Part shown: positions 33,738 through 54,581 of the stretch, piece after piece
Layout of the letters: the number at the start of each line of letters is the position of its first letter
Numbering within the stretch: position 1 is the first letter of the stretch
NCBI GenBank assembly: GCA_963702895.1
Contig: OY969767.1
Coordinates: forward strand, 1,792,001-1,856,000
Direction: 5' to 3'
DNA length: 64,000 bases
DNA from: an uncultured Elusimicrobia bacterium
GTDB lineage: Bacteria; Elusimicrobiota; Elusimicrobia; 2-01-FULL-59-12
Translations under genes and position numbers: made by a program
The notes under the pieces: generated by a model
Database searches by the model: none
What the model was told of the DNA's origin: nothing
The model's input: the letters and a program-made list of their open reading frames with translations, nothing else

Positions 33738-35195
33738 TTAGCGGGTGGCGACCACTTTGATTGTGCGAAGTTCCTCGGTTTCTTGGCCGCTGATTCGGAT
33801 GTCCTTTCCAGCCAAATCCATAATAAATTCGACGATTTCCTGGGTGATGCGCTCGCCCGGGATCAGCACGGGGATCCCTGGCGGGTAAGGCGTGAGGGTC
33901 TGCGCGCAGATATGACCTGCGGCGCGCGACAAAGGAACGCGCTTGGTGCGCTGCGCGAGAAAAACGTCCCGCGGCGTCATCGCCATTTCGGTCGAAAGGG
34001 AGGGAAGCTGCAAGACCCAGTTTTTCTCATGCCCTGGTTCTTTTTTGTCCAGATCTTCCAGGGCCGCGATCAAGCGTTCGACGTCCTTGCGGGTCGTGCC
34101 AACCCCCATGATGGCGATGAGATTAAAAATGTCCGCGCAATCGACCTGGATCCCATATTCCTTGGCGAGGATCTCTTCGACATCATGACCGGCGAGGCCC
34201 GTCCGGGTCACATTGATAGAGAGCTTGGTGACATCCAGGTCGTAGCCCTTGGCTCGGATTTCCCCTTGCGTGATGCAATAGAAGCGCTGCAGGCGGTTAA
34301 TTCGCTCGCGCGCGTCTTCCGCCAGGCGCATGATGCGCGAGAAGATTTTTTTGCCTTGAAAGAACACCTGCCGGCGCGCTGCGTCCAGCGAAGCCATGAT
34401 GAAATAGTTGGGACTGGTGGTCTGGAGGAGCGAAAGAATCTTGCGGACCCGGCTGATATCGACTTGGTCCGAATTCACATGCAGCACGGACCCCTGGGAG
34501 AGGGCCGAAAGTATTTTGTGCGTGGATTGCACGCAAAGATCAGCCCCCGCCTCGATGGCCGAGATGGGCAGGTCGGGATGGAATTTCAGGTGGGGCCCAT
34601 GGGCCTCATCCACCAACAAGAGCTTCCCGCGCGCGTGGCAGAGCTCGGCGATTTTCTTCAGGTCGGTTGTAATACCGTGATAGGTCGGGCTGGTGACAAA
34701 CACAGCCTTGGCTTCGGGGAACTGCTGGAGGGCCTGTTCAATCTGCGCGGCGTCCGAATCAAAGATCACGTCCAAATGCTGGTCGATCTTGGGCTGGATC
34801 CAGATGGGCCACACCCCCGACATAATGATGCCCGAGAGCGTTGACTTATGAGCGTTGCGAGAGACAATAACAGAATCCCCCGGAAGGCAGCCGGCCATGA
34901 GCATGGCCATGTTGCCGACGGAGGAGCCGTTCACAAGGAATTGGGAGTACTTGACGCCGTAGGCGGCCGCCATGAGTTGCTGGGCTTTTTTGATGGGCCC
35001 CACAGGATCGTGCAGGGAATCCACCTCAGGAAAAACGGTGACGTCGAGCTTGTAGACATTTCGGCCGGTGAAACTTCTTAAACGCTTGTCGATGCCTTGG
35101 CCGTTCTTATGCCCCGGCGTATGAAAGGACGTCACCCCGCGGCGCGCGCGGGCCAGCAAAATGTCCATGAGGGGCGTGCGTTCCTGGTTTTTCAT
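33738..35195 (-). CDS. PLP-dependent Arg/Lys/Orn decarboxylase (likely arginine decarboxylase)
   Basis: FHTPGHK, VNGSS, RNAHKS, DEAHG, QSTHK, TTSP and YPPGIP. Confidence 0.9.
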   Translation of the reverse strand: MKNQERTPLMDILLARARRGVTSFHTPGHKNGQGIDKRLRSFTGRNVYKLDVTVFPEVDSLHDPVGPIKKAQQLMAAAYGVKYSQFLVNGSSVGNMAMLMAGCLPGDSVIVSRNAHKSTLSGIIMSGVWPIWIQPKIDQHLDVIFDSDAAQIEQALQQFPEAKAVFVTSPTYHGITTDLKKIAELCHARGKLLLVDEAHGPHLKFHPDLPISAIEAGADLCVQSTHKILSALSQGSVLHVNSDQVDISRVRKILSLLQTTSPNYFIMASLDAARRQVFFQGKKIFSRIMRLAEDARERINRLQRFYCITQGEIRAKGYDLDVTKLSINVTRTGLAGHDVEEILAKEYGIQVDCADIFNLIAIMGVGTTRKDVERLIAALEDLDKKEPGHEKNWVLQLPSLSTEMAMTPRDVFLAQRTKRVPLSRAAGHICAQTLTPYPPGIPVLIPGERITQEIVEFIMDLAGKDIRISGQETEELRTIKVVATR

Positions 35196-35373
35196 TTTCC
35201 TCTCGGCAAGTGAGGTCTTCACAAGGCTTCCCTCCGCCTGTCCCTCATCACGCCCCAGCGATCGGGCGGGTGCTTTCGGGCCGAAGCGAATCTAACGAAG
35301 GGACATCATACTTTTCCACGGACCGCATGGCGTAAGTTTTTGTGGGAGCCGATGCAGGAAATCTTTAGGGGCC

Positions 35374-35562
35374 CTTGCCGTGGGGGAGGGAGGCGACTCA
35401 CTCCGGCGCTCCCGGACACCCCGGCTGGGTGGATCGCGCAGCCTGCGGAACTCGCCTCTTCCCTGTACATCAAAGGTCGAGGCTCAACCATCCTCGGCTG
35501 GACGCGCTCACCACCCGGCCGCCGTCCGCGAGTCGTTCGCTGCCTCCCTCCCCCACGGCAAG
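35374..35562 (-). ncRNA. Unclassified structured RNA, copy 1
   Basis: Perfect 21-bp closing stem and nested helices. Core shared with copy 2; TAAAAT directly upstream on the minus strand. Confidence 0.6.
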
Positions 35563-35592
35563 AGATTTTAATGCTATCAAGATGGAGTTGCA

Positions 35593-35824
35593 CCTCTTCC
35601 CCTGGAGCGGGAGCCTGGCAAGCGACTCGAAATTTCAAGCGTTTTGGCGAGGGCGAGTCCAGCCGAGGACTGTTTGAGGACCCACCGCTGCCCTTGTGGG
35701 AGAGGGTCCGAGTTCCGCAGGCTGCCCGAAGCCAAAACGCTGCCCCTCCGTGACCCTGCAGGGCTTGGGCCATGGAGGGGGAAATTTCGCTGGAGCGAGC
35801 AGGCTCCTGCTCCAGGGAAAGAGG
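35593..35824 (+). ncRNA. Unclassified structured RNA, copy 2
   Basis: 25-bp closing stem with a G-U pair and nested helices. Shares GTCCAGCCGAGGA and CGAGTTCCGCAGGCTGC with copy 1. Confidence 0.6.
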
Positions 35825-35873
35825 AGAAAACCTACCCTCAAAGATTTCCTGCTACTTGTAAGAGCGCTTGTCT

Positions 35874-37859
35874 TTACCCCCAGAGCCGCAAGGAAGCGCC
35901 GCCAAAATACGTGCGTCCTGGCAGTGGATACCCCGAACGCTCGTGGTAGCGCTTGTCGGTGATGTTGTTGACGCCAAGATAGAACTCCAGCTGCCTCACT
36001 TGATAACCCAAACGCATGTCCCAGAGGAAGTGGTCTTCCAGTTTGTCGCCGCTTTCATCGTTTCCTTCGTAGCTGGCCGAGACATAACGAAGGTTGTTAT
36101 CCACCGTCCAATGCGAGTCGGGCTTCCAGGTGAGGAGGTCGTTGACCGTGTGATGAGGGCTCAAGCGAAGCGTCACGTAATCCTCGTACCCTTGGGGGAT
36201 GCCTTGATTGTCCAGATAGGTGTAGTTGACGCTATGCCGAAGGCCTGGCCCGGCGAAGTGAGCCACCTCAAATTCACCCCCCTGGCGTCTGGCGGTGCCG
36301 ACATTGACCGTCGTGTACGTCGGGCCTATGGTTGTCTGAATGAGATCGGTGACGTTCGCCCGGAAATAGGTCACTTTGACGCTCGCGGAATCTTCATGCA
36401 GCTCGAACCCCGCGTCGTAGGTCCAGGCTTCCTCTGGATTTAGGTTGGGGTTGCCTTGATAACTGAACCCATATCCAAAATCCGTGAAGGGCGTGTACAA
36501 ATCGTCGATGGTGGGCGCGCGGAAGGATTGGGCCGCGGAACCAGAAAGACGGAGCCAGGGGGTCGCATCGGCGATGGCAAGGAGGCGCGGGCTGGTGGAC
36601 TCCCCCGCCTGACTATGATGATCGTAGCGGAGGCTGGGGATCAAGGTGAGTTTCTTCCATGGCAGGGTGTCTTGGAGAAATACCCCCCAATTCTCGACCG
36701 AGGCGATAAAATTATTGGCAGGCGTCGTGTGGTCCTGGCTGTCCAACCGATCGCGGATAAAAGTACCTCCCACCATGAAGCCCATGGGCAAATCCACCTG
36801 AAGCTCGCCGCCCTTGCTTTGCTCATCACGGTCCGTATCAATGGAATAGTCGGGGTCCTTGTAGGCGACCTCGCGCTCGGAGCCGAAGAGTCGCAAGGCC
36901 GCCAAGCTGTTCATGGGGAGCGGCAGGAGATACGAGGTTCTCAGGTATCGCGAGTCCGTGATTTGTCGCGCGTTGGGGCTGGCGGCTTGTTTCTCCGTTT
37001 CGCCGTCATATTGATTGACCGGAAGATCGGGATAGATTTGGCCCGGGGAGCCCGCGTTGTTGTGATAGGAGGCGACATCAAGGAGGACTTTGCCGCCCTT
37101 GCCCATGGAGAACCCCGCGTTTCCTCCTAGATTGAAGGCTTTCGCGTCCGAATTATCGCGGAATCCGCTTTCCCGCTGCTGATTTCCGAAGAAGTAATAA
37201 TCCAGCGGGCCGATACGGGAACCGGCGTTGAGTCGATAGACGTCCCCGCCGAAGGAGCGGAGCTCATATCCAAAATGGGCGATCGGAAAACCCACGTGCG
37301 TCGAACGTTTGGAAATGACGTTGATCACGCCCCCCACGGCATTGGGTCCGTACAAGGCGGAGGCCCCGCCACGCACTATTTCAATCCGGTCGATCTGCTC
37401 GAGGGGTATTTCCGAGAGGTCCTGGCTCCCGCTTAAGCCCACGCCGCCGACAGGTCGACCGTCGAGAAGAACGAGGGTTTGATTGCTGGTCGCGCCGCGA
37501 ATCCCGGCGAGCCGGAAGGACCCCAGCCCGCCCTGATCTTTGAGTTGGACGCTGGTTTGCCGCGTGATGGCGTCCCCCGCGTTTTGAGCGTCGAAGCCGC
37601 GGAAGAGCTCGGGTGTTACGGTCGCCGCGTAGCTCGGCAAGGCTTCGCGGCCATAGGAACTTCGGGTGAGCGTGAGAAACACACCGGCCGATGAGGCATC
37701 GGTCATGGCTTGGGGGGCCTGCACCGAAACGGACTCTCCGGTGAGCGCGGCGCTCGTGGAGAGCACGGGCGCCTCTTCCGCACAGACGGACGAAGCGCAG
37801 GCCAGGAGGAAAAGCGCCACACGTATGCCTTCAGGAAAGGCGCGCTGAGGGTGGTTCAT
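35874..37859 (-). CDS. btuB: TonB-dependent cobalamin receptor
   Basis: Plug motifs IRG..QTLVLLDG and IDRIEIVRG.ASALYG, FRAPT, NPNL.PE, GRTY; B12 riboswitch upstream. Confidence 0.88.
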   Translation of the reverse strand: MNHPQRAFPEGIRVALFLLACASSVCAEEAPVLSTSAALTGESVSVQAPQAMTDASSAGVFLTLTRSSYGREALPSYAATVTPELFRGFDAQNAGDAITRQTSVQLKDQGGLGSFRLAGIRGATSNQTLVLLDGRPVGGVGLSGSQDLSEIPLEQIDRIEIVRGGASALYGPNAVGGVINVISKRSTHVGFPIAHFGYELRSFGGDVYRLNAGSRIGPLDYYFFGNQQRESGFRDNSDAKAFNLGGNAGFSMGKGGKVLLDVASYHNNAGSPGQIYPDLPVNQYDGETEKQAASPNARQITDSRYLRTSYLLPLPMNSLAALRLFGSEREVAYKDPDYSIDTDRDEQSKGGELQVDLPMGFMVGGTFIRDRLDSQDHTTPANNFIASVENWGVFLQDTLPWKKLTLIPSLRYDHHSQAGESTSPRLLAIADATPWLRLSGSAAQSFRAPTIDDLYTPFTDFGYGFSYQGNPNLNPEEAWTYDAGFELHEDSASVKVTYFRANVTDLIQTTIGPTYTTVNVGTARRQGGEFEVAHFAGPGLRHSVNYTYLDNQGIPQGYEDYVTLRLSPHHTVNDLLTWKPDSHWTVDNNLRYVSASYEGNDESGDKLEDHFLWDMRLGYQVRQLEFYLGVNNITDKRYHERSGYPLPGRTYFGGASLRLWG

Positions 37860-38004
37860 GATGAGGTCCTTTCTCAAAATCGTTACGAATAAAAAATCCC
37901 ATTCCAACGCGTAAGAGGAATGGGACGCACCCTTCATGGACATACGAAGCAAGTCCGGTCCACCCAACCTTCCCGCGAAGGCCCTTACGTTATGGTGATC
38001 CATA

Positions 38005-38090
38005 GTAGATCGGGCTTTTACCGTTGCGGGGCAGTCCCGGAATTCCACCGGAGTTCCATATCCGCCATGAGTCGGGCGGACGAGCCCTCT
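38005..38090 (-). promoter_or_regulatory. Cobalamin riboswitch (short form)
   Basis: ATATGGAACTCCGGTGGAATTCCGGGACTGCCCCGCAACGGTAAAAGCCCGA matches the B12-element core. Confidence 0.9.
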
Positions 38091-38191
38091 CTCTCAACAA
38101 GAAGGCACTATGGATCACAAATAAAGAACTGGCTGGATTATACCCTTGCGTTGACTTAACGTGTCAACCTGAAATTTGTAAAATGCAGCCT

Positions 38192-38710
38192 ATGAATACA
38201 AAAACGATTTCTCTTGTTGGGCTCATACTCTTGGCCGCTGTCCTTCGCCTGCTGCCTCACCCGTGGAATTTTTCACCCATCGCCGCGATGGCGCTCTTGG
38301 GAGGCGCGTCTTTGCGGACCCGAAGCGGTGCGCTGCTCGTCCCCCTGGCGGCTCTTTTCTTGAGTGATTGGGTCCTGGGCTTCTATCCCACGATGTTCGT
38401 CACTTACGCGGCCTTCGCCGCCGTGGTCATGATCGGAAGGCTCCTGAGCGACCAAGCCAAGGCGCCCAAGATTTTCCTCGCCTCCATGGCCGGCTCCATC
38501 ACTTTTTATGTGCTCAGCAATTTCGGAGTCTGGCTCTGGGATGGGCTCTATCCCCTGAACACGCAGGGCCTCGTCGCCTGCTACACCGCGGCGCTGCCCT
38601 TTTTCCAGGGGACGCTGGCTGGCGATCTGTTTTATGCCGCCGTGCTTTTTGGCGCGTTTCGTTTCGCGCAGGCCCGCTTCCCCGCCCTCCAACAGGCCTC
38701 GTCCATTTAG
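38192..38710 (+). CDS. DUF6580-like putative vitamin transporter (S-component-like)
   Basis: RLLPHPWNFSPIAAMAL, SNFGVW and CYTAALPF. Confidence 0.75.
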   Translation: MNTKTISLVGLILLAAVLRLLPHPWNFSPIAAMALLGGASLRTRSGALLVPLAALFLSDWVLGFYPTMFVTYAAFAAVVMIGRLLSDQAKAPKIFLASMAGSITFYVLSNFGVWLWDGLYPLNTQGLVACYTAALPFFQGTLAGDLFYAAVLFGAFRFAQARFPALQQASSI

Positions 38711-38722
38711 CACCCAATTTCG

Positions 38723-39874
38723 GTGATCGCCACGGAACCCTCCATCCAGGATTTTATTCTCCAAAATGAGCCGCGCCTGAGCACCCCCTACTACCTGCTG
38801 GACGAAGCACGACTGCGCCTGAATATGGAGAAGATCGCGCTGGTGCGTGAGCTCTCCGGCGCGAAATCCGTTCTGGCCCTGAAGTGCTTTTCGACTTGGG
38901 CGGCGTTCCCCCTCATGCGGCCCTACCTGGATGGCACGACCTCGAGCTCGCTCTTTGAGGCCCGCCTCGGTCATGAAAAATTCGGGAAGGAAGTCCACGC
39001 GTACAGCGTCGCCTTTCGTGAAGAGGAAGTGAAGGCGCTCCGGCCTTTTGCGACCAAGATCATTTTCAACTCCGTGTCCCAGCTGAAGCGTCTTTCCCCC
39101 CATGCCGCGGGTCTTCCCCTGGGCCTGCGGGTGAACCCCGGGGTGAGTTATTCTCATTTTGATTTGGCCGATCCCGCCCGAAAATGTTCCCGGCTAGGCG
39201 CCACGGACCCCGCGGAAATAGAAAGCGTCCTCGGCCAGATTTCGGGTGTGATGTTTCACTGCCATTGCGAAAACGATGACTTTGAAAAGTTCTGCCAGAT
39301 CCTCGAGCACATCGAGAAAACGCAGGCGCGCGTCCTCCAGAAAGTCCGCTGGGTGAGCCTCGGCGGCGGGATCTATTTTACGAAGGAAGGCTATCCGCTG
39401 GAGGCTTTTGCCCGGCGCCTGGCGGATTTCGCGAAGCGCTTCGACGTGCAAGTGTATCTCGAGCCCGGTGAAAGCGCGGTCACCCGCGCGGGGTTTCTCG
39501 TGACGCGGGTCCTCGACATCGTCCACAATGAAATGGACATCGCTATTGTGGACGCGGCCGTGGAAACCCATATGCTCGATCTTTTGATTTACAGGACGGA
39601 TGCTAAAATAGAACTTCCTGAAAATGGCCGGCATCGCTACATGATCGCCGGCCGCACGTGCCTTGCGGGAGACATCTTCGGAACATACAATTTCCCGGAA
39701 GCCCTGCGCGTGGGAAGCCTGGTCACGCTCTCAGACGCAGCCGGCTACACGATGGTGAAAAAGAACTGGTTTAACGGGGTCCCCATGCCCTCCATTGTCA
39801 TGAGGCGCTTGGATGGTCGCGCGGAGGTCGTCAAGACATTTACGTACGACGACTACCTCCGCACTTTATCCTAA
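38723..39874 (+). CDS. nspC: Carboxynorspermidine decarboxylase
   Basis: TPYYL, LALKCF, LRVNP, SRLG, LGGG, LEPGE, TCLAGD and YTMVK..FNG. Confidence 0.93.
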   Translation: MIATEPSIQDFILQNEPRLSTPYYLLDEARLRLNMEKIALVRELSGAKSVLALKCFSTWAAFPLMRPYLDGTTSSSLFEARLGHEKFGKEVHAYSVAFREEEVKALRPFATKIIFNSVSQLKRLSPHAAGLPLGLRVNPGVSYSHFDLADPARKCSRLGATDPAEIESVLGQISGVMFHCHCENDDFEKFCQILEHIEKTQARVLQKVRWVSLGGGIYFTKEGYPLEAFARRLADFAKRFDVQVYLEPGESAVTRAGFLVTRVLDIVHNEMDIAIVDAAVETHMLDLLIYRTDAKIELPENGRHRYMIAGRTCLAGDIFGTYNFPEALRVGSLVTLSDAAGYTMVKKNWFNGVPMPSIVMRRLDGRAEVVKTFTYDDYLRTLS

Positions 39875-39894
39875 GGACGGGAGACAACAGCATC

Positions 39895-41130
39895 ATGAAA
39901 AAGAACGTACTGATTGTCGGAGCAGGCGGCGTCGCGCATGTGGCGGCCCATAAATGCGCGATGCACAACGATGTCCTCGGCGACATCTGCATCGCCTCGC
40001 GCAAAATCGATAAATGCGAGGCCATCCTCGAGAGCATCAAGCGCAAAGGCAATCTCAAGCTCAAGTCCAAGAAACTTTACGCTCGCCAGGTGGACGCGAT
40101 GGATGTGCCAGCCTTGGTCCGACTGATCCAAGACACCCGTTCCGAGATCGTCATCAATCTCGGAACGGCCTACATCAACATGTCCGTCCTGGAAGCCTGT
40201 ATCAACGCGGGCGTCGCCTACCTGGACACCGCCATCCACGAGGACCCCACGAAAGTCTGCGAGGACCCGCCGTGGTACGGCAACTACGAGTGGAAGCGCC
40301 GAAGCCGCTGCAAAGCCAAAGGCATCAACGCCATCCTGGGGATTGGGTTTGATCCCGGCGTGGTGAACGCCTACGCGGCGCTTGCGGCCAAAAAATATTT
40401 CGACAAGATCGACACGATTGACATCATGGACGTGAACGCCGGTTCGCATGGGAAGTTTTTCGCGACCAACTTCGACCCCGAGATCAACTTTCGCGAGTTT
40501 AAGAAGGTCTGGACCTGGATTGACCGCAAATGGGTCAGCCGGCCTGTTCACGCGGACAAGTGGACGTGGGATTTCCCGGTGGTCGGTAAGCAGACGGTCT
40601 ACCTCACGGGGCACGACGAGCTGCATTCGCTTTCCAAGAACATCGATGCGCAAAGCATCCGGTTTTGGATGGGCTTTAGCGAGCATTACATCAGCGTCTT
40701 TAATGTCCTCAAAAACGTGGGGATGCTCTCGGAAAAGCCCGTGCGCACCGCCGAAGGCGTCGACGTGATCCCCTTGAAGGTCCTCAAAGCCGTCCTGCCG
40801 GATCCCTTGTCCCTGGCGCCCAACTATAAGGGATTTACCTGCATCGGCAATCTCACGAAGGGCAAGAAAGACGGAGAGTACAGGGAGAACTTCATTTACA
40901 ACACCTGCGACCATGCCGCCTGCTACAAGGAAGTCGAATCCCAGGCCATTTGCTACACCGCAGGCGTCCCACCCGTGGCCGCGGCGATCCTGGTCGCCAA
41001 AGGGACCTGGAACCCCAAAACGATGGTCAATGTCGAGGAGTTGGAACCCGAGCCGCTCTTGAAGTTGTTGGATGGGATGGGACTTCCGACGAAAGTGCTC
41101 GACAAGACGCCCGCCGCCCAGCCGGCTTAA
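39895..41130 (+). CDS. Carboxynorspermidine dehydrogenase (saccharopine dehydrogenase family)
   Basis: GAGGVA, YLDTA, GFDPGV, FATNFDPEINFRE and YTAGVP; adjacent to nspC. Confidence 0.92.
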   Translation: MKKNVLIVGAGGVAHVAAHKCAMHNDVLGDICIASRKIDKCEAILESIKRKGNLKLKSKKLYARQVDAMDVPALVRLIQDTRSEIVINLGTAYINMSVLEACINAGVAYLDTAIHEDPTKVCEDPPWYGNYEWKRRSRCKAKGINAILGIGFDPGVVNAYAALAAKKYFDKIDTIDIMDVNAGSHGKFFATNFDPEINFREFKKVWTWIDRKWVSRPVHADKWTWDFPVVGKQTVYLTGHDELHSLSKNIDAQSIRFWMGFSEHYISVFNVLKNVGMLSEKPVRTAEGVDVIPLKVLKAVLPDPLSLAPNYKGFTCIGNLTKGKKDGEYRENFIYNTCDHAACYKEVESQAICYTAGVPPVAAAILVAKGTWNPKTMVNVEELEPEPLLKLLDGMGLPTKVLDKTPAAQPA

Positions 41131-41132
41131 AC

Positions 41133-43253
41133 TTAAGCAGCTTTGTTGGAGGCGGCCGGAGCTGCGATTTTTTCCATCACAAAGAAGAATTTGCTGCCTT
41201 TGCCGACCTCAGACTCCACCTGGATCGTGCTGTTGTGGGCCTCCACAATTCCCTTGCTGAAGGATAGACCGATACCGAAGCCGACCGCGCGGTCTTCGGA
41301 TTTGACCTGCTCAAATTTCCCAAAGAGTTTCTGGAGCGCCTCCGGGGGGATGCCGCGTCCATTGTCCTGAACGGCGATTTCCACGCCCGCGGGCACGGCG
41401 CGGGCGATGATCTTGACCCAGCCGCCTTCCATCGTATACTTGATGGCGTTTCCGGTGATGTTTTCCACGACACGTTCCATTAAGGAGGCGTCCGCCCGGA
41501 CCCAAAGCGTCGGATCATCGCACTCCGCGGTGAGGGTAATCTTTTTGGCCAGCGCCTGGAACTTCAGGTCCCCGGCGATTTTCTTGACCATCGCCTGGAC
41601 CTGCATCGGCACGGGATGGATGGCCAGCTTCCCGGCTCTTAAGCGCGCCAGGTTCAAGATGGTCTCCACGAGGCTCAAGGCCCGCTTGGCGGACTGCTTG
41701 GCGGATCCCACGAGTGTCCCCAGCTCCGCGTTGCTTTCCGGCACCTGGATTTCTCCCAATCCCAGATAGCCGATGGTCGCCGCCAGCGGCGTCCTCAAAT
41801 CGTGCGTGATGCCGTTAAAGAAGTCTTCCTTCATCTTGTCCAGCTCTTTGTCCTGCGTGATGTCATGGACCACGATCATCACGCCGAGCGCTCGGCCGTC
41901 CTCGGTATGGACCTGTTGGGCGATCACGCGCGCCCACCGCGAACGCCCGTGGACAGGAAACTCAAATTCGGCGGATTCGCTCTGCTTGGCATGGGAAAGG
42001 ACCGGCTCCAGAAGATCGGTCCACGGAGGGTACTCTTGCAGGGACTGCCAGGCCTTCTCAAAATCCGCTTTGCCGTGCCCTGCCACATCCATGGCCCATT
42101 GCCGGGAGGGCGCATTCGAAAAGAGAAGCTGGCCCTGGGCATCGACCATGACGATACCGTCTTGAATCGTAAAGAGGAGCGCTTCCACTTTCGACTTCTC
42201 ATCGATGATCTTTTCCACCTGCATCGCGTTATAGACCTGGAGCTCCTGCGTCATCTGATTAAAGGCCTTCCCTAAGGCTCGAAACTCCTCGAGCCCAAAG
42301 TTTTCCGGCACTTTAATATGGAATTCACGCTTGGACACGTGCCCGACGCCGCTCGCCAGTTTCGTAATGGGAGAGCTGATGTGGTGCAGCCAAAAATACC
42401 CGAAGAGGCCGATGCCGAGCACGCTTACGATCACCCAAAAGTAGGCCTGCGATTTTAATTTGGCGATTTTGGCGTAGGCCTCGGCTTGAGGCTGCGCGGA
42501 GAGGATAAACCAGCCGGCGCTCTCCACCCACTGGCCGGCCCCGACCGATGGCACGCCGCTCGGATTTTCAAACTCTCCCATCCAGATCTCGCGACCTTCC
42601 AAACGCTCACGGAAGAACTTCCACGCAGGCAGGAGCGCCTGGCCCACGCGGGTGTTTTGGGAGTCTCCCGCGATGGTCCCGGCGCTATCGATGAGCCAGA
42701 TATAACCCTGCTCGCCAGCTTGCTGGTCATAAAGAATTCTCTTCAAGGATTCCCAGCGGACCGACACATACAACCATTCGCCGCTCTCCAGAGGATAGAG
42801 GACGTCAAAAAAGGACCGGCCGTCCCGCTCGTAGACCGCGCCCGTATCCGCATGGCGGTCCGTGATCACGCTGAGAAATAATTTGTTAGCAGACAGGTCC
42901 AGGGGTGAACGGAACTCACGGATTTTCGTGTCGTAGGCCTTGGCGAGCTCACGGCCCCCAGCATTGAGCAAGGCGACACAAGCAAAATCATCATTGGAGA
43001 GGAGCGCATTGTTCAAGATCGCGATCTGCTCTCCCCACTGATGGCTCCTGGCGAGCAGCGGCGCAAAGGCCAAACGCATGTTGAGCTGCTGGAAATAGCT
43101 GCTCGTGTTCAAGGACAGGGCGTTGACAATGTGACGATGGAGATCGTAGATCTGCGCTTTGGATTCGCGCGTGTATTGGATGATTTTCACGCACGTCATG
43201 GTGACGGGAACGACGACGATCGCTAGGATAATGAGAAACCATCGGCTACGCAC
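41133..43253 (-). CDS. Membrane sensor histidine kinase (Cache-like, HAMP, PAS, HisKA, HATPase)
   Basis: Two TM helices, THDLRTPL, NAIKY, DNGRG and GFGIGL. GTG start overlaps the upstream stop. Confidence 0.92.
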   Translation of the reverse strand: MRSRWFLIILAIVVVPVTMTCVKIIQYTRESKAQIYDLHRHIVNALSLNTSSYFQQLNMRLAFAPLLARSHQWGEQIAILNNALLSNDDFACVALLNAGGRELAKAYDTKIREFRSPLDLSANKLFLSVITDRHADTGAVYERDGRSFFDVLYPLESGEWLYVSVRWESLKRILYDQQAGEQGYIWLIDSAGTIAGDSQNTRVGQALLPAWKFFRERLEGREIWMGEFENPSGVPSVGAGQWVESAGWFILSAQPQAEAYAKIAKLKSQAYFWVIVSVLGIGLFGYFWLHHISSPITKLASGVGHVSKREFHIKVPENFGLEEFRALGKAFNQMTQELQVYNAMQVEKIIDEKSKVEALLFTIQDGIVMVDAQGQLLFSNAPSRQWAMDVAGHGKADFEKAWQSLQEYPPWTDLLEPVLSHAKQSESAEFEFPVHGRSRWARVIAQQVHTEDGRALGVMIVVHDITQDKELDKMKEDFFNGITHDLRTPLAATIGYLGLGEIQVPESNAELGTLVGSAKQSAKRALSLVETILNLARLRAGKLAIHPVPMQVQAMVKKIAGDLKFQALAKKITLTAECDDPTLWVRADASLMERVVENITGNAIKYTMEGGWVKIIARAVPAGVEIAVQDNGRGIPPEALQKLFGKFEQVKSEDRAVGFGIGLSFSKGIVEAHNSTIQVESEVGKGSKFFFVMEKIAAPAASNKAA

Positions 43254-43890
43254 GGCGTTTCTCCTTACGGGGGTTGAGCAGCACAATTTCAATGCGGCGG
43301 TTCAGTTCCCGGTTATCCTTCGAAATATTGGGCACCTTCGGCCGATAGGGACCATAGCCGCGGGCGGAGATCCGGGAGGGGTCGATCCCGGACTGCGTTA
43401 AAAAATGGATGACGCTAAAGGAGCGCGCCACGGAAAGCTCCCAATTGGAACGGTAGGCGGACCGGCGCCCCGGCGGGAGATCGTCCGTGTGGCCTTCCAC
43501 CACGAGCTCCCCGGGAAAGGCCCGCAATTCAGGGGCCAGTTTCTTGAGCAGCACCATGGCCTCGGGCTGCAGTTCCGCTCGGCCCGACGTGAACATGAGC
43601 CCGTCCGGCAGCTGAATATTGACGCGCTCCGCCTGGACGTCGAGCGCCGCCAATTTGTTCAGACGCTGCACCATGCCCACTTGAGCCTCTTGCGGGGCTC
43701 TGAGCTGCTGAAAGCGTCTTTCTTCCCAAGACACTTTTTTCGCCCAGAGCCGGTGCGCGAAGAGCATCAAAAAAAAGATCATGAGGATCGTCATGAAATC
43801 GCTAAAGGAGACGATCCAGATATGAGAGCTTTCGTCTTCGTGAGCTTCCAGGCTGCTGAAATCTTCCTCGGAATCGCGTACATTACTCAT
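43246..43890 (-). CDS. motB: MotB-like stator subunit 2
   Basis: WIVSFSDFMTILMIFF TM with the conserved Asp; OmpA-like EGHTD, NWELS.AR and NRRIEI. Confidence 0.9.
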   Translation of the reverse strand: MSNVRDSEEDFSSLEAHEDESSHIWIVSFSDFMTILMIFFLMLFAHRLWAKKVSWEERRFQQLRAPQEAQVGMVQRLNKLAALDVQAERVNIQLPDGLMFTSGRAELQPEAMVLLKKLAPELRAFPGELVVEGHTDDLPPGRRSAYRSNWELSVARSFSVIHFLTQSGIDPSRISARGYGPYRPKVPNISKDNRELNRRIEIVLLNPRKEKRRA

Positions 43891-44518
43891 AGCGTAAGAT
43901 GCCGATCTCGATACGGCGGTTGGCGGCCCGGTGCTCGGGCGTGTCATTGGGAAGCTTGGGGTGGAACTCACCAAAAGCGGCGACGCCGAGGCGCTCCGGG
44001 GGAATGCCTTCCGCCGCGATCAAGTACTGCACCACGGACATCGCCCGCGACAGCGACAACTCCCAGTTGGACGCATAGCGGCTCCCGGGCCGAAGGGGCG
44101 TGTTGTCCGTGTGCCCTTCCACAAGGACGGTGTAGGGAACGCGCTTAATGGCCGTGGCCACGGTATGCAGGACCAGCTGGCTCTCGGCCCGGAGCTGCCC
44201 GGCGCCTGTCTCAAAAAGGATTTCGTCAGGAAGCGCCATTTGCAGGCGGTCTTCCCGCGCGACGACCGGAGCGGTCTGGTCCGAGACCATCTTCAAGTCG
44301 CGCGTGATGTCGTCGTACCAGGGGGCGGCTTTCTTCGAATACTCCATGCGCGACCTCATGGAGGCGATCGCGTCCGGAATCGCGTCGGGCCCAAAAAAGG
44401 ACAGCGCGTAAAGACTCAGGAAGAGCAGGAAGAGGTTCGTGATGAGATCGGAATAGATGGTCAGCCAGATAAACTGGTTGCGGCGCTCCACGAAGACAGC
44501 GGAAAGCTTATCAATCAT
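43883..44518 (-). CDS. motB: MotB-like stator subunit 1
   Basis: WLTIYSDLITNLFLLF TM with the conserved Asp; EGHTD, NWELS.RA and NRRIEI. Confidence 0.9.
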   Translation of the reverse strand: MIDKLSAVFVERRNQFIWLTIYSDLITNLFLLFLSLYALSFFGPDAIPDAIASMRSRMEYSKKAAPWYDDITRDLKMVSDQTAPVVAREDRLQMALPDEILFETGAGQLRAESQLVLHTVATAIKRVPYTVLVEGHTDNTPLRPGSRYASNWELSLSRAMSVVQYLIAAEGIPPERLGVAAFGEFHPKLPNDTPEHRAANRRIEIGILRYE

Positions 44519-44577
44519 GGTTCGACTCGTTTTTCGGCTCGCTCACCATGACCCTGAGCGACACAGGAGTCGAAGGG

Positions 44578-45387
44578 TCATGCGGCCCTTCTGCCAGTGG
44601 ACGCCTGGGCGGTGCTCGGCGTGGTTTGGAGTTGCTCACGCTTGTGCGCGTCCGCAAACGTTCGCAGTTTACGCAGCGTGATGACGGGGACCTCGTTTTG
44701 CTGGATGCATTCCACGCCTTCAATAATGAGTTGCTTGAGATAGATCTCTTCCTGCGAATACACGTTGAGCTTGCCCGCGATCGGCAGGAAAAGAAAATTG
44801 GCGCTAAAGATTCCATAGAACGTCGCGGTCATCGCGACCGCCATCGCGGCGCCAATCGTTTTGGGGTCGGAGAGGGTCATCAAGACTTGGACCACCCCCA
44901 CGAGGGTCCCGAGGAGCCCAAAGATGGGCGCGTACGAGGCGGCGCTTCGGAACACATTGGACACCATCACATGGCGGTCACGGGCAAAACGGATTTCCTT
45001 GAGCAAATTACTGCGGACAATGTCCGCCGGGACGCCGTCGAGCACCATGCGCAGGCCGTCCACGAGATAGGTGATCCTGATTTGCGCTAAATCCGCCTCC
45101 AGGCTTTCCATACCCTGACGACGGGCTTTCTCGGAGAGCGCGACGATCGTCCGGATCACGAGGGTCGTGTCCGGCCTGTCTCCCGGGAAGAGAAAGATGA
45201 GGACCGCGCGCGCGGCGGGAAAAATGATGGCGCTCGGGTAGGTGAGGAGGATCGCGCCGAGCGTCCCCCCAAAAACCAGGAGGATCGCGTGCGTGTTCAG
45301 AATGAGCCCGACAGAATTCCCCTGAACCAGGACGTATCCGACGCTCCCCAGTCCAATCAGATAGCCGAGCGGCGTCATCCAATCCAT
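44578..45387 (-). CDS. motA: MotA/PomA stator subunit
   Basis: VFGGT, KARRQGMESLE, APIFGLLGTLVG, ATFYG and ANFLFLP. Confidence 0.93.
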   Translation of the reverse strand: MDWMTPLGYLIGLGSVGYVLVQGNSVGLILNTHAILLVFGGTLGAILLTYPSAIIFPAARAVLIFLFPGDRPDTTLVIRTIVALSEKARRQGMESLEADLAQIRITYLVDGLRMVLDGVPADIVRSNLLKEIRFARDRHVMVSNVFRSAASYAPIFGLLGTLVGVVQVLMTLSDPKTIGAAMAVAMTATFYGIFSANFLFLPIAGKLNVYSQEEIYLKQLIIEGVECIQQNEVPVITLRKLRTFADAHKREQLQTTPSTAQASTGRRAA

Positions 45388-46895
45388 TATTTACGCTCCG
45401 GCAAGGCGATGCGGCCGTCGACGAGGAGTCTCCGGCCGGTCTCCTGCATTTTCATTTTGGCATCCGCAATGGCCGTGCGGTCCTCCGCGGCCAAATCGAG
45501 TTCCTGCTGGAGGATTTCGCGAATCGCGACCGGGAGCCTCCTTAATATAGCTTCCCGAAAATCGGGTTTCTCGTCCCGCAAGGCCAGGGCCGTGGTCGGA
45601 TAACCGACTTCCTGGACCAAGAGCCTTAGCGCCCCCGCGCTGATGACCCCCAAGTCCTCAATAAAAAATGTCTTTCGCCGCAGGGCCTGGGCCAAGAGGG
45701 GCGACTCTTGATTAAGCGACCCTAAAAGGGTCCTTTGGGTCTGCGGCTGGGTGAGTTGATAGACCGATTGGATCCATTCCTCTCCCCCCACCAAGTAAGG
45801 GAGCTTGGACTTCACGTGTTCCTCCAGCTCCTTGACAACATCCGGCGGGACTTCGCGGGCCTGGCTGAGCTCCCGCATGATGGTGGTCTGAACAGAAGCG
45901 TCGAGCGAGCCGAGGACGCGGCTCGCCCACTCGGCAGGCAGGTAAGCCAAGATCAGGGCACACTGCGCCGGCGAGAGGCCGCGGCAAAGAATGGGGAGCT
46001 TGTTGAGCTGGTCCTCTCGAATAAACCGGAACGGGCGGGCGCCGGCCTCTTCGGGATCGAGAGAGCCATTGCCGTTGTTCCCCAAAGGGTACATTCCCCC
46101 GTTGGCGGCAGCGGCGGCGTTGGTTTTGCTTGGCGCGTTCGAAACCGTATAAGCGGCTTGCTCTCCCACGCGGGGCAGCACCGCGAGCAGCCTATTGAGA
46201 AAGGCGCGCATGGGGCCAAAGAGGAACGCGATAAAGAAGACAAACACCGCGACGAGCGCCCCGGCGATCATGAGGACGGGGGCGTTGGCCCGGTTCAAGA
46301 GGCTTCCCCAAAACGATTTCTCCCCGCCCGCGGCCTGGATTTTCCCTTCGGTGGTCGCCGGCTGCAGGAGGTTGGAGTTTTGAACCTGCATTTCGTCCCC
46401 GCGCAGAGGATTGAATGGGATGCTGGCCGTGATCACTTCGCGGATATTGCGGATCTGTTCCGCGGTCACGTCCCGGGCGACCAGAATCGAGATCGAGATT
46501 TTTTTAACGAGCGTCTCCGCGGAAAAAGCGCTCACCGTCGTTTCGCTCTGCTCTTCCGGATTGGCCACAAACTCCTTTTTTCCCGGCACGCCCGGCAGCA
46601 CGTATTGGTTTTGGCCCAAGAGGGTGTTGCCGCCCCGCCGCGCGGTGGTGGATTGGACCGAAGGACGCTCACGGTTTTCCATCTCCACTTTGACCGTCAC
46701 CAGATAACTGCTCGGCGGAAGGGTCTTGGCGAGGATCCCTTCGATCCGGTTCTGGATCTGGGTCTCAATCTGGATCTGTTCTTGTTCATACTTGGCCATG
46801 ACCCAGGCCGAAGCCGCCCCGATCAGACACAAGCTCGCCACGAACCCGAAGAGGCGCGCGCTAAGTCGTCTGGACCATGGAAGATTCATGTTCAT
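45387..46895 (-). CDS. FliF C-terminal ring domain fused via a TM helix to FliG middle and C-terminal domains
   Basis: IQNRIEGIL..VTVKVE and VKKISISILV..IREVITASIPFNPLRGD (FliF_C-like); TM; PAQCALILAYL (FliG_M-like); GG..FFIEDL..ALAL..GRI (FliG_C-like). Confidence 0.8.
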   Translation of the reverse strand: MNMNLPWSRRLSARLFGFVASLCLIGAASAWVMAKYEQEQIQIETQIQNRIEGILAKTLPPSSYLVTVKVEMENRERPSVQSTTARRGGNTLLGQNQYVLPGVPGKKEFVANPEEQSETTVSAFSAETLVKKISISILVARDVTAEQIRNIREVITASIPFNPLRGDEMQVQNSNLLQPATTEGKIQAAGGEKSFWGSLLNRANAPVLMIAGALVAVFVFFIAFLFGPMRAFLNRLLAVLPRVGEQAAYTVSNAPSKTNAAAAANGGMYPLGNNGNGSLDPEEAGARPFRFIREDQLNKLPILCRGLSPAQCALILAYLPAEWASRVLGSLDASVQTTIMRELSQAREVPPDVVKELEEHVKSKLPYLVGGEEWIQSVYQLTQPQTQRTLLGSLNQESPLLAQALRRKTFFIEDLGVISAGALRLLVQEVGYPTTALALRDEKPDFREAILRRLPVAIREILQQELDLAAEDRTAIADAKMKMQETGRRLLVDGRIALPERK

Positions 46896-46901
46896 CGTCC
46901 T

Positions 46902-48017
46902 TTAAGGTGTCCCGATCGCTCCCGGCGGCAGGACGAGCACCTGCCCCGCGTTGAGCTGATAGGGGTTCTTCAAATAGGCCCTGTTGGCGTCATAGAGTTT
47001 CCGCCAAACATTCTTGTCCTTGTAGATGCGCTGCGCGATCGACATGAGCGTGTCGCCTTTTTGGACCTTATAGGTGAGCGCCTGGGAAGGAGCGCGGTCG
47101 GCTTCTGCGGCGGTCTGGCTCATGAAGCTCTTGAGCACGTCGTTCTTCGGATCGCGCTCCAGGGCCTGCGTCCAATACTGGCGGGCCTGCTTCACTTGGC
47201 CCATCGCGTAATAGACGGAGCCCAGACGCGTCAGGGCCAAGGGATTCTCAGGCTCGAGGTCCAAGACCTCCTGGCATTCCTTCGCGGCGACGAGGTATTC
47301 TCCCGAATAGATTTTCTCGAGGGCCTTTTGCAGCTTCTGATCGATGAGGTTGAGCCTCGCGTCGAGGATCTCGGAGGACTCGTTGGGGAAGGTCCGTTTG
47401 ACCAGGTCGACGAGCTGCCCGATGACGGGGTTTTTCGTGTCTTTTTGCTGCGCGTACAAGAGGAAGTTGATCGACTTCGAGGGTTCGTTCTGCAGAAATT
47501 GTGTGACCCCCTTGATGACGAGGTCCCCGGACGCGGATTGCACTTCGCTCATCTGAGGAACGATCACCACCACCGAATCCATCTTCTGGCGGAGCTCGGT
47601 GATCGTCCGGTCGGTGGGATTGGTGCGCTCGGCTTCCCGGAACGTGTCCAAGGCCCCTTTGAAGTTGCCGGCCTGCACCGATGCAAACGCGCTCTGGAAG
47701 AGCTCCTGGGCTTTCTGGCGGGAAGCGGCGCTCACCGTCTGAACGGCCTGTTCATCCGCCAGGAGCTGGGCCCGCTCATCCTCGAGCGCCTTCGAGTCTT
47801 TCTTCCGGACCTTATGGAGTTTGATCAAGCGGTCCAAGAGCACAATGCGCTCTTGAAGGGAGATTCCCTGTTCCACCCGTTTCCTGTAATTCTCGGTTTG
47901 GATGTCGAGTTCATCTTTGGAGGCCGCTTCATCCTCGTCCCACCGCCAGGCATGCGCAGGCGGCGTGCAGGCGCTTCCCGCAAAGGACAAAAGGCAGATG
48001 AGGGTGAGCCATTTCAT
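46902..48017 (-). CDS. Exported TPR plus LysM protein
   Basis: Signal peptide, TPR repeats and YKVQKGDTL..IA..W..LY.AN..NP..GQVL. Confidence 0.9.
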   Translation of the reverse strand: MKWLTLICLLSFAGSACTPPAHAWRWDEDEAASKDELDIQTENYRKRVEQGISLQERIVLLDRLIKLHKVRKKDSKALEDERAQLLADEQAVQTVSAASRQKAQELFQSAFASVQAGNFKGALDTFREAERTNPTDRTITELRQKMDSVVVIVPQMSEVQSASGDLVIKGVTQFLQNEPSKSINFLLYAQQKDTKNPVIGQLVDLVKRTFPNESSEILDARLNLIDQKLQKALEKIYSGEYLVAAKECQEVLDLEPENPLALTRLGSVYYAMGQVKQARQYWTQALERDPKNDVLKSFMSQTAAEADRAPSQALTYKVQKGDTLMSIAQRIYKDKNVWRKLYDANRAYLKNPYQLNAGQVLVLPPGAIGTP

Positions 48018-48105
48018 CCTAGACTCCATCTTAAGTGTAAGGCGCTTTTGTAAAGCTCCTATCACATCGATGTAAAGACGTTGTAAATTTATCGGTGATT
48101 TCATA

Positions 48106-49116
48106 TCAATTCTTCCTTCCAAACCTAAACGACATGGACACCTGGTTCGTCCCGAAGGTCCCTTTTACGCCGGACAGGGGATAAATTAAAGCGTAATCGA
48201 CCTGGAGGTTATCCCACCGATAAGAAAATCCAAGGGAGGTCATCTGATATTGGCGCTGGCCGAAGCCCAGGCCGCCGCGGAACCCAAAGCCTCCTTTGAG
48301 CCACCGCTCCCCGCCGATCAGGAACCGGAATTCCCGAGAGGTGAACTCGCGGGCGGAAATCTCGACATTGACCGCTGAAATCTTGGTGCGCCGCGCCAGG
48401 GCCGCTTTGTAGATGGACCCCACTTTATCCGTGTCCGAGGTGGAGAGCGCCATGTTCGGGCTGTTCAGGTTGAGGATCGCCAAGCCCAGGCCGTAAATTC
48501 TCGAAATCCGGTACTGAGCGCCCAGATCAAAGCTCGCGGCTGATTTGGAGGTCCCGTTCTGCGCGAAGAGGGGATCTGGGGCCCCCAAGGAGGCGCCTGT
48601 ATCCGAGTTGATGGCGTTATCGGTATAAGCGTCGGTCCCAAAGGATTTTTTAAGAAATTTGAGGCTTCCCCCCAGGTTCCAGCGGTCCCGGACCGAATGC
48701 GCGTAATGCAAAGACATGGTGCTCTCGGAGTAGAGCCCTGCCAGGGAGAGCGACAGGTAGCTGACGCCAAAAGTGCCCCGTTTGGCCGTGGGGTGACCGT
48801 AAGCGACATACGAGCGGCTGATCGAGGAGCCATCCGTCAGGCCCGAATAGAGTTTGGAATAAGAGGCGTTCAACTCGGAACGGTTGAGCTGGGCAAGACC
48901 GGCGGGGTTGTAGTAAGAGGCCAGGACATCATCCGCGAGACCGGCAAAGCTGCCGCCGAGGCCCGCTTGACGGGCCCCCGTGGGGAGCTCTTCGAAGGAC
49001 GCCCAGGCGGAACGCGAGAGGGCAACCGAGGCAAGAACGATGAAAAGGAATCGGACGACAGAGGCCGCCCTGGGCACGAATTGGCTGACTTCTCTTGTAT
49101 AAGAGCCTACGCGCAC
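48106..49116 (-). CDS. Outer-membrane beta-barrel, PorV/PorQ-like
   Basis: GARQAGLGGSF..ADD..YYNPAGLA N-motif, beta strands and a C-terminal FRF. The start may be downstream. Confidence 0.75.
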   Translation of the reverse strand: MRVGSYTREVSQFVPRAASVVRFLFIVLASVALSRSAWASFEELPTGARQAGLGGSFAGLADDVLASYYNPAGLAQLNRSELNASYSKLYSGLTDGSSISRSYVAYGHPTAKRGTFGVSYLSLSLAGLYSESTMSLHYAHSVRDRWNLGGSLKFLKKSFGTDAYTDNAINSDTGASLGAPDPLFAQNGTSKSAASFDLGAQYRISRIYGLGLAILNLNSPNMALSTSDTDKVGSIYKAALARRTKISAVNVEISAREFTSREFRFLIGGERWLKGGFGFRGGLGFGQRQYQMTSLGFSYRWDNLQVDYALIYPLSGVKGTFGTNQVSMSFRFGRKN

Positions 49117-49672
49117 GTTCCCTTGTACAGGGGGACCTTCTCAAAGGAAAGTAAATTATGTGTAACAATAGATCAGATCGATAAATCAATCCGTTTGAGA
49201 AGCTGGTGAGATTCTTGTGACGTGCGCTGTGAGGTTCTTGTGAGCGGGGTGGTTCTCTCTAAGAACGACCCCGAAAGATTCGGTTGCGCAAGATCACCCT
49301 CTCCCGCCGCGAGGCGGGAGAGGGCGATGCCCAAAGGGCAACGGGTGAGGGCACGCTCATTCCTCTCGACGAAAATCTGCCCTCATCCTTCCCTTCTCCC
49401 ACCTTCGGCGGGAGAAGGAAGACTTCAGTTCCCCTCTCCCGCCGTGAGGCGGGAGAGGATTAGGGTGAGGGCCAAGTGTGCCCTCATCCTTCCCTTCTCC
49501 CACGTTCCGCGGGAGAGGGAGGAAAAGTCTTCCTTCTCCCAACTAGCGGCGGTAGAGGGGGTTACCGAGAACCAAAGATACCCGGCCGAAGAGATGACGT
49601 AAAAGGAGCACCCTCGGGGACGACGGTTTTTGTTCCATTCCAATCGACAGGTTTCGTTGATATAATCGCTCT

Positions 49673-49912
49673 ATGTTTAAGCGAATTGTGACGGATCACC
49701 GCATTTGCCATGGGAAGGCATGCATTAAGGGCACGCGCGTCATGGTTTCCACCCTTGTCGATTGCGTGGCTGGCGGCATGACCTTTGCCGAAATTCGCGC
49801 ATCTTTTCCCTCTGTGACAGACAAAGACATCCAGGCGGCTCTTTCCTACGCCGCGGCGCTCGCCCGGGAAAGTGTCTTCCCTTACCTGCAAGGCCTGAAG
49901 AAAGCTATTTAA
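49673..49912 (+). CDS. DUF433 antitoxin
   Basis: ICHGKACIKGTRV..DIQAALSYA. Confidence 0.88.
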   Translation: MFKRIVTDHRICHGKACIKGTRVMVSTLVDCVAGGMTFAEIRASFPSVTDKDIQAALSYAAALARESVFPYLQGLKKAI

Positions 49913-50281
49913 GTGCGCTTCCTGGTGGATGAAAACCTCCCCCTGGAGATCGTCCATCTCCTGAAAAAGAATGGCCACCACGCGGTCCATGCCCTCGACC
50001 GCCTAAGACCGGGAGGATCCGACTTGGCGGTCTTCCGCCTGGCGCAGCGTGAACGCCGGATTTTGATCACCTGCGATCTTGACTTCTCCGATATCCGCCT
50101 TTTCCCTCCTGGGCGCCACGCCGGCATTTTACTCTTGCGCGTGGAGCCTCAAAGCGTCGCCAACTTTTGTCGCGTTCTCGACGGGTTTCTCCGCTCCTCT
50201 CTTGTCTCTCATGGCGCTCGAGCCATCACCATCCTGGACGAAAATGGCTTCAGGATTCGCACAGCTCACACTCCCGAATAA
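49913..50281 (+). CDS. DUF5615 PIN-like toxin
   Basis: MRFLVDENL, ILITCDLDF and HAGILLLR. Confidence 0.88.
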   Translation: MRFLVDENLPLEIVHLLKKNGHHAVHALDRLRPGGSDLAVFRLAQRERRILITCDLDFSDIRLFPPGRHAGILLLRVEPQSVANFCRVLDGFLRSSLVSHGARAITILDENGFRIRTAHTPE

Positions 50282-53931: not shown

Positions 53932-54321
53932 CTATCGGGCGACGGCGAGGGTGCCTGTGGCGTGTTCGCCTTGAAATTCCAGCTGGTAAATGTAGATGCC
54001 GCCCGCGACGGTCTTGCCGTCTTCGTCTTTGCCATCCCAAAGGAGAACGTCGGGCGTGGTGCCCTGCTGGAGGCTGGCGACGCGCGCGCCGCTTAAGTCG
54101 AAGACCGAGCCCGTCACCGGCAACTGTTCGGGATTGTCGAGCTCAAAGCGCGCTTTGTCGTTAAAGCCGTCGCCGTTGGGCGTCAAGATCCGGCAGGCCA
54201 CCGCCGTCAAAGTGACCGAACCCAGCGAGGCGAGCGCCTCCACGGACGAGGGACGAGCAAGCAGAGACGAGAACAACAGTATCCCTACGATGATGAGTCG
54301 CGTTGCTGAATAGATCTTCAT
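53932..54321 (-). CDS. Stand-alone exported CHU_C/gliding-motility-associated C-terminal domain protein
   Basis: Signal peptide then ILTPNGDGFND..WDGKD..GIYIYQ..GT..VAR. Confidence 0.8.
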   Translation of the reverse strand: MKIYSATRLIIVGILLFSSLLARPSSVEALASLGSVTLTAVACRILTPNGDGFNDKARFELDNPEQLPVTGSVFDLSGARVASLQQGTTPDVLLWDGKDEDGKTVAGGIYIYQLEFQGEHATGTLAVAR

Positions 54322-54581
54322 ATAGAGTCCCTCCTAAGGTTAAGCCCAGTTAAGCCTTTTGTCAACACATCAGATTCTCACGAGAATTCAGATCGATTTC
54401 GCAATCCCATTCTTACAGCCAAAAACATAGTCCCTGGGTGGAGTCCCCTCTCCCGCCGCCAGGTGGGAGAGGGCGATGCCAAAAGGGCAACGGGTGAGGG
54501 CTAGGCGTGCCCTCATCCTAGCCTTCTCCCGCCTTCGGCGGGAGAAGGAAGCTCCTACGACAAGGGAACGTCCCCAAGACG

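Follow-up and report, generated by a model that had tools for sequence, protein, structure and literature searches.

Here, we analyzed a 64,000-nt stretch of DNA (hereafter, the window) from an uncultured Elusimicrobia bacterium (GCA_963702895.1, contig OY969767.1, positions 1,792,001-1,856,000) and found that a cluster of seven genes, at positions 41133..49116 of the window, encodes what is, to judge from sequence, a conserved flagellar motor core used without a flagellum. The predicted rotor is a single protein, a FliF-FliG fusion, accompanied by MotA, two MotB proteins, an exported tetratricopeptide repeat (TPR) protein with a LysM domain, an outer-membrane barrel and a histidine kinase. 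The best reading of this assemblage, which we hold tentatively, is an unswitched rotary motor that would move a carrier, formed by the barrel and the TPR protein, together with its adhesin. Throughout, G000 denotes the genome to which the window belongs, other G numbers further genomes of the phylum, and L numbers the compared loci. The cluster comprises the following features:

48106..49116, minus strand: PorV/PorQ-family outer-membrane barrel (NF033709, E 5e-18, 65.7 bits, below the cut-off of 90), in many relatives fused to the TPR(-LysM) protein
46902..48122, minus strand: exported TPR protein with C-terminal LysM (Pfam TPR and LysM; model pLDDT 91), of a family that tracks the rotor gene
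45387..46895, minus strand: FliF-FliG fusion, 502 aa, with export signal, ring-building motif 3 (RBM3, residues 29-178), transmembrane segment (TM, 207-225), short linker, and FliG middle and C-terminal domains (M and C, 287-498)
46362..46811, minus strand: FliF RBM3 ring-building domain of the fusion, with a collar insert carrying LPGVP (residues 100-104)
45402..46037, minus strand: FliG M and C domains of the fusion, with the Gly-Gly hinge kept, EHPQ degenerate, the Arg281 equivalent lost and an acid at the Asp289 equivalent kept
44578..45387, minus strand: MotA, flagellar type (closest to the MotP/PomA/MotA models, none of them above cut-off; TolQ much weaker)
43883..44518, minus strand: MotB1, with plug, OmpA domain and the ion-binding Asp
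43246..43974, minus strand: MotB2, probably starting at 43890, with the Asp kept here and replaced by Asn/Ser in 11 related loci
41133..43292, minus strand: dCache-HAMP-PAS histidine kinase, probably starting at 43253; an accessory gene with orthologues confined to the family

The open reading frames (ORFs) are as tightly packed as had been claimed in an original prediction made from the letters of the window, overlapping starts and stops included. The TPR and fusion genes are separated by 6 nt, the fusion gene and motA share a TAATG junction, 59 nt lie between motA and the first motB, and, given an ATG at 43890 for MotB2 and a GTG at 43253 for the kinase, the junction sequence reads as 8-nt overlaps for both MotB1/MotB2 and MotB2/kinase. 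Comparison with a locus from the same genus yielded dN values of 0.07-0.19 against dS of at least 1.5, and dN was far below dS for every gene of the cluster against two relatives; by this measure, all seven genes are real and under purifying selection.

The 502-aa ORF had been described as the C-terminal, ring-building part of FliF followed by one TM and by the FliG M and C domains, with the FliG N domain missing, and this description is borne out by profiles, fold and linker length alike. The three Pfam profiles proposed as a check all matched (FliG_C, E 5e-12; FliG_M, E 6e-12; YscJ_FliF_C, E 4e-5, 24.4 bits with a cut-off of 23.8); FliG_N gave only a sub-threshold match, which falls on the FliG_M residues of the fusion. 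In an AlphaFold2 model built from 85 sequences (pLDDT 82, pTM 0.46), residues 29-178 correspond to FliF RBM3 (8z5v; Z 14.9, root-mean-square deviation 1.6 Å, 99 residues aligned) and the cytoplasmic part to FliG M/C (1lkv; Z 13.7), with unrelated entries of the fold search at Z of 9 or less. A profile search reached FliF at E 6e-13 and, weakly, SpoIIIAG. Thus, Pfam, fold and profile all place RBM3, with its collar insert and the subsequent TM2, in the fusion, and hydrophobicity indicates one N-terminal hydrophobic segment and one TM. Homologues are full length and, where the source is named, come from Elusimicrobiota. Given that the linker from TM to FliG_M spans 54-83 aa in all 85 aligned homologues, there is no room for a FliG N domain; likewise, the residues preceding position 36 (median 29, maximum 70 among the 85) leave no space for TM1, RBM1 or RBM2, in agreement with the model. 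The FNPLRGD motif singled out previously is present, with its R, G and D kept in 80, 78 and 82 of the 85 homologues, respectively, and so is the Gly-Gly hinge of FliG (Gly in 81/85 and 82/85), whereas the FliM-binding EHPQ motif is degenerate. Among the best-conserved parts of the fusion is LPGVP of the collar insert (P101 in 85/85, G102 in 84/85), which may be homologous to the rod-binding loop of Salmonella FliF; this high conservation suggests a site at which the load may bind. The motif is missing from the canonical FliFs of G064 and G242. Complex prediction with two copies of RBM3 and the TPR domain scored 0.24 against a mark of 0.32 and is used neither for nor against this suggestion. 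In L118 (6417-10151, minus strand) and P0198, the fusion is lengthened to about 1,230 aa by NHL/propeller-like repeats and a CTD-like end (CTD, C-terminal domain of type IX secretion systems, T9SS), predicted to lie on the cytoplasmic side.

G000 is a single contig, 98% complete, in which FlhA and FliP gave no matches (controls matched in 4/14), and rod and hook proteins, flagellin, FliM/N and CheW were not found genome-wide while control searches gave matches, so that the claimed absence of a flagellar gene set holds beyond the window. The same genome carries a second fusion, a 649-aa FliF-FliG-TPR protein encoded with SwrD/FlbD, MotA and one MotB (C1:2298032-2302165; L002 10033-14166, minus strand). 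Because G064 and G242 possess flagellar clusters with separate canonical fliF and fliG in addition to fused systems, the fusion is not a substitute for the flagellar ring. With FliF and FliG profiles matched, no flagellar set detected and gene order conserved in relatives, none of the three results named beforehand as refuting occurred.

The MotA of the cluster is of the flagellar type (NF005383, E 2e-53 vs TIGR02796, E 0.015). Its Thr residues are presumably of the Na+ type and its best matches are MotP/PomA, from which we draw no conclusion on ion specificity. The Arg/Glu pair noted previously, which by spacing we take to be R90/E98, is present in the window protein but fares unevenly across the family, with the R90 equivalent basic (R/K) in 34 of 35 sequences and the E98 equivalent Glu in 11 and Gln in 21. 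On the FliG side, the torque helix forms charge pairs through R281 and D288/D289 (PMC12505986); among the 85 fusions, the R281 equivalent is Gly or Ala in 74, that of D289 is Glu in 67, and that of D288 is Gln in 60 and Glu in 23. Thus, with Arg281 replaced in 74/85 and Glu98 in 21/35, half of the classical MotA-FliG charge pairing is gone. In the flagellar MotA of G064, Gln likewise occupies the E98 equivalent, and the loss of Glu is therefore compatible with torque, though the interface is altered.

Both MotBs of the window combine a plug, an OmpA domain and the Asp in the TM. Across 33 loci with two MotBs, one copy lacks the Asp in 12 (11 second copies and 1 first copy) and both copies in none, a pattern that argues for an obligate MotB1/MotB2 heterodimer. 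The Asp-less copies, with Asn, Ser or Gly instead, belong to L075, L079, L081, L087, L089-L091, L093, L094, L097, L099 and L122. In a quick tree, from which 8 non-MotB or cut sequences were left out, the Asp pattern requires 5 changes, of which starred branches force 3.

Profile matches likewise agree with the identities proposed for the TPR-LysM protein and the dCache-HAMP-PAS-HisKA kinase and, below cut-off, the barrel. Partner counts were obtained from 40 loci out of 57 listed places. MotA is present in 33 of these loci, two MotBs in 31 and a TPR-family gene in 33, and 5 of the 7 loci without MotA have giant coiled-coil genes occupying the flank. A barrel lies beside the TPR protein or is fused to it in 20, and LysM is found on the TPR protein in 10. 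Close orthologues of the kinase are confined to the window's own family; in other families, a different kinase, a response regulator-GGDEF or a CHASE2 cyclase lies near the cluster, and in one family, a response regulator-GGDEF gene follows the motB genes. The conserved core is, accordingly, the fusion, MotA, the MotB(s) and the TPR protein, and the barrel, LysM and kinase are variable accessories. Hence, the claim of a one-protein rotor with its own stator outside a flagellum is supported, and so is conserved gene order, but the seven genes are not a fixed unit. In relatives, the fused barrel-TPR proteins are 527-642 aa long; their genes lie immediately upstream of the rotor gene and often follow one for a CTD protein of at least 1,600 aa. 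The complete arrangement of barrel-TPR, fusion, coiled coil, SwrD, MotA and MotB, in that order, is seen in six of 20 additional regions; five of the six continue with a conserved probable lipoprotein and three begin with a giant CTD gene. Searched by fold, the TPR model retrieved generic TPR proteins together with a Kbp LysM, and no specific partner. A c-di-GMP-I riboswitch precedes three of the four operons of the second type that were searched (L113, L114 and L126, but not L125). At 5593-6261 (minus strand), the window encodes a homologue, 41-44% identical, of the probable lipoprotein located after MotB in such operons; it gave a weak match to a carboxypeptidase-regulatory-like domain.

FliG_C is found in 175 of 401 genomes of the phylum, with up to 8 matches per genome, and in 2/118 and 1/89 genomes of two small-genome families. 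A single frame encodes both RBM3 and FliG in 25 of the best 30 FliG_C loci; 4 others are split pairs of the canonical kind and 1 is cut. FlhA was detected in 6 of 80 genomes hand-picked from the 175. MotA occurs in 9/10 FliG_C-positive vs 5/56 FliG_C-negative genomes, and the TPR family in 28/29 positive genomes and, weakly, in 2/36 negative ones, the one positive genome without it being flagellated and possessing canonical FliG only. The TPR gene lies 1.5-2.3 kb from the FliG match in 22 of 22 pairs matchable among the matches listed. Because related genomes are not independent, these co-occurrence counts are patterns rather than tests. Some distant homologues of the fusion carry source names from outside the phylum: of ten looked up, three are assigned to Margulisiibacteriota/Saganbacteria, and a further homologue belongs to an unclassified metagenome-assembled genome. 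Gene context there rests on one locus (one from the contig scan, one from the metagenome scan). This locus, L127, encodes MotA, MotB, TPR protein and fusion, and no barrel; its TPR tail shows a weak SPOR-like match (E 0.012, below cut-off), and its TPR protein scores 57 bits against the family profile, where unrelated TPR proteins of G000 score 64-73 bits.

The motor occurs against a T9SS-like background. G000 encodes an 1811-aa SprA/Sov-like translocon (G000:C1:1185972-1191407; L105 7973-13408, minus strand), which matches TIGR04189 at E 2.5e-50 (170.9 bits, below the cut-off of 200) and yielded no PDB sequence match, along with 29 FlgD_ig/CTD-like matches, mostly C-terminal, and 14 barrel matches, most of them next to a CTD gene and one paralogue above the NF033709 cut-off. 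SprA-like genes are present in 352 of the 401 genomes, small-genome lineages included, and in 172 of the 175 with FliG_C. The region G000:C1:18970-72663 encodes a 13,690-aa ORF, a 1099-aa CTD protein, a 582-aa barrel-TPR protein and two coiled-coil proteins (1609 and 762 aa), a gene order within which relatives carry the second fusion gene. A tandem array of about 13 large proteins with near-identical terminal CTDs lies at G000:C1:2185276-2232109. One explanation, which we consider unlikely, is that the rotor stands in for GldLM/GldKN and, for giant cargo at any rate, pulls the barrel-cargo complex from the SprA-like translocon, carrier release being described as the energy-requiring step of the T9SS in the relevant part of PMC10994853. 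Consistent with such a role, GldM was not above cut-off in 65 genomes or G000 and GldN was found in 0/30, in searches made without a positive control and not extended to GldK/GldL, and the median number of FlgD_ig matches is 21 in 29 rotor-bearing vs 7 in 36 rotor-less genomes, a difference confounded by kinship and genome size. However, the SprA-like gene is kept in 113/118 and 50/89 genomes of the two families with FliG_C in only 2 and 1, and 35 of 36 FliG_C-negative, SprA-positive genomes keep CTD-like proteins (11 and 22, respectively, in the near-complete G124 and G349). The translocon and CTD proteins thus persist where the motor is lost, and the motor is therefore not a general secretion motor; secretion, one of the drives proposed originally, is argued against in the sense of a power source for all export. 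That the motor is nested within the secretion system yet unneeded for its retention lowers the standing of a general energizer and favours a dedicated job on one carrier.

The reading that we prefer, a motor moving the barrel-TPR carrier and its adhesin, envisages an ion-driven, probably one-directional inner-membrane rotary motor in which flagellar parts act on surface proteins. The fusion would be exported by its N-terminal signal, probably cleaved thereafter, with RBM3 periplasmic and FliG M/C cytoplasmic, as its anatomy shows; by analogy with FliF and FliG structures, the FliF ring having about 34 subunits, RBM3 and FliG M/C would then self-assemble into a ring. Homology suggests that MotA5 with MotB1/MotB2, probably a heterodimer, would bind peptidoglycan and turn the FliG C gear. 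There would be no chemotactic switch, because FliM/N and CheW are absent from G000. Gene fusion and linkage point to a force path through the LPGVP collar loop and the TPR protein to the PorV-family barrel with a CTD-tagged surface protein exported by the SprA-like translocon, such that an adhesin could be moved or pulled in the outer membrane, for surface motility or attachment. In the relevant part of PMC12618676, Type B CTD cargo is described as often gene-linked to its own shuttle barrel.

Several points weigh against this scenario. Ring, rotation and motility are predictions drawn from homology and gene context; the link would have to cross the peptidoglycan; and the charge pairing between MotA and FliG is half gone. 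By pinning the TPR protein and the barrel to the wall, LysM would suit a fixed scaffold more than a moving load, and the barrel is missing from 20/40 loci (some cut by contig ends) and from L127. The nearest CTD genes (53932-57896) lie 4.8 kb upstream of the cluster and are not adjacent in L064-L066. No c-di-GMP-I riboswitch was found in the window or in three loci of the same type (L064, L076 and L090), and eleven strong T2SSE-family pilus/secretion ATPases in G000 offer other routes to surface movement. With a LysM anchor and no giant adhesin encoded next to it, this locus has a weaker link to motility than the second operon type. The CTD genes just mentioned encode a 129-aa CTD-only protein (53932-54321, minus strand) and an 1104-aa FN3 protein with CTD (54582-57896, minus strand), the CTDs of which are among the closest matches (39% and 42%) to a small CTD gene beside the barrel-TPR-LysM gene of L076.

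The anchored TPR protein could alternatively be a fixed load or scaffold of a Tol-Pal-like envelope tensioner or sensor, with the motor exerting or reporting force and the adjacent kinase reading it out. The varying anchor of the TPR protein (LysM in 10/40, barrel in 20/40, weak SPOR in L127), the kinase, GGDEF or cyclase genes that often adjoin the cluster, and the TPR proteins PflA/PflB, described in part of the literature as scaffolding stators in other motors, are all in line with this possibility. We nevertheless judge it improbable, marginally more so than secretion, given that the signalling genes are non-orthologous between families, the module is dispensable in whole families, G000 has two other ExbB/TolQ genes, and the giant upstream CTD genes would be left unexplained. 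Some other function altogether has a small chance, lower again. Very improbable, and largely refuted, is the idea that the module is left over from a flagellum and decaying, or forms the MS/C ring of a flagellum that escaped detection: every part is a flagellar homologue and some members of the phylum are flagellated, but selection is purifying, paralogues are kept across the phylum, and the canonical fliF/fliG of G064 and G242 coexist with fused systems.

The closest relative of the predicted machine is the flagellar motor core (6SCN, 8Z5V, 1LKV, 8UCS), with which it shares RBM3 and collar insert, TM2, FliG M/C with the Gly-Gly hinge, a flagellar-type MotA, MotB with plug, Asp and OmpA domain and, at the second locus, SwrD. 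Unlike that core, it uses a single chain without RBM1/RBM2, FliG N, FliM/N, export gate, rod, hook or filament, as well as two different MotBs, a lost Arg281 equivalent, and TPR and barrel partners. Such a rotor can be driven: according to the pertinent part of PMC6445934, an engineered Salmonella FliF-FliG fusion that similarly lacks the FliF C-terminus and FliG N still rotates, with clockwise bias, although this laboratory mutant sits in a full flagellum and keeps RBM1/2 and FliM/N. The precedent mentioned originally, FliF-FliG fusions in non-flagellated Chlorobi, was not found; the natural fusion in print, likewise from a non-flagellated bacterium, is that of Chlamydia, which is about 330 aa long with a FliG M-like part, lacks an RBM3-type domain and, in the relevant part of PMC4768692, is discussed with the injectisome rather than a stator. 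The present case is the reverse: RBM3 and FliG M+C plus a stator, with no export apparatus. The Bacteroidota T9SS/gliding machinery (GldLM, GldKN, SprA, PorV, SprF-SprB) similarly combines a SprA-like translocon with PorV-family barrels that pair with CTD genes, and has a 5:2 ion motor working on a ring; here, however, GldM/GldN were not found in the searches described, the predicted ring is the inner-membrane FliF/FliG, the barrel carries a periplasmic TPR protein and the translocon occurs without the motor. Myxococcus AglRQS, as characterized in part of the literature, is also a non-flagellar 5:2-type motor but resembles TolQR and has neither an OmpA domain nor a FliF/FliG ring. It presumably shares the use of two different B subunits.

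In non-flagellated Elusimicrobiota, motAB, flbD and fliG have been noted as orphans, their role being called unclear, in a preprint that evidently deals with the same genes and whose section 13 is silent on the FliF fusion, the operon and the TPR/barrel link (bioRxiv 10.1101/2022.07.08.499144). The main texts of PMC12505986 and PMC13277936 do not mention Elusimicrobiota. Apart from the orphan-gene remark, no description of the system as such was found in the literature searched, with most subscription journals outside its coverage.

Known derivatives of the flagellum, the injectisome among them, retained the export apparatus but not the motor; the derivative described here is the opposite, with the motor kept and export lost. 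It may, as we propose with slightly more reserve than for the function itself, represent a new class of rotary machines, in which flagellar rotor and stator without export apparatus or axle drive a T9SS-like carrier and a giant adhesin, providing a new surface motility in Elusimicrobiota and some other uncultured phyla and, in many lineages, using a heterodimeric MotB with one ion-binding Asp. The four-gene rotor-stator (fusion, MotA and two MotBs) could be reconstituted in liposomes or a laboratory strain. This would put the geared MotA5B2-FliG model to the test in the absence of switch and axle, and likewise the sufficiency of one Asp per stator. The system further bears on the energy source of T9SS-like systems seemingly without GldLM/KN and on how a flagellar motor could exist apart from the flagellum.

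Rfam matches in the window, L002, L105 and L106 are limited to tRNAs. Upstream of the barrel gene, at 49562-50281, are two short overlapping ORFs, one of which resembles, by eye, a DUF5615/PIN-like toxin-antitoxin gene; they are absent at this position in L064-L066. An ORF at 3576-4535 (plus strand) looks like an IS30-family transposase. Downstream of the kinase, the stretch 33738-41130 holds a TonB-dependent receptor, a probable B12 transporter gene and polyamine genes, the latter encoding an Orn/Lys/Arg decarboxylase (Pfam) and, by eye, carboxynorspermidine decarboxylase and dehydrogenase.

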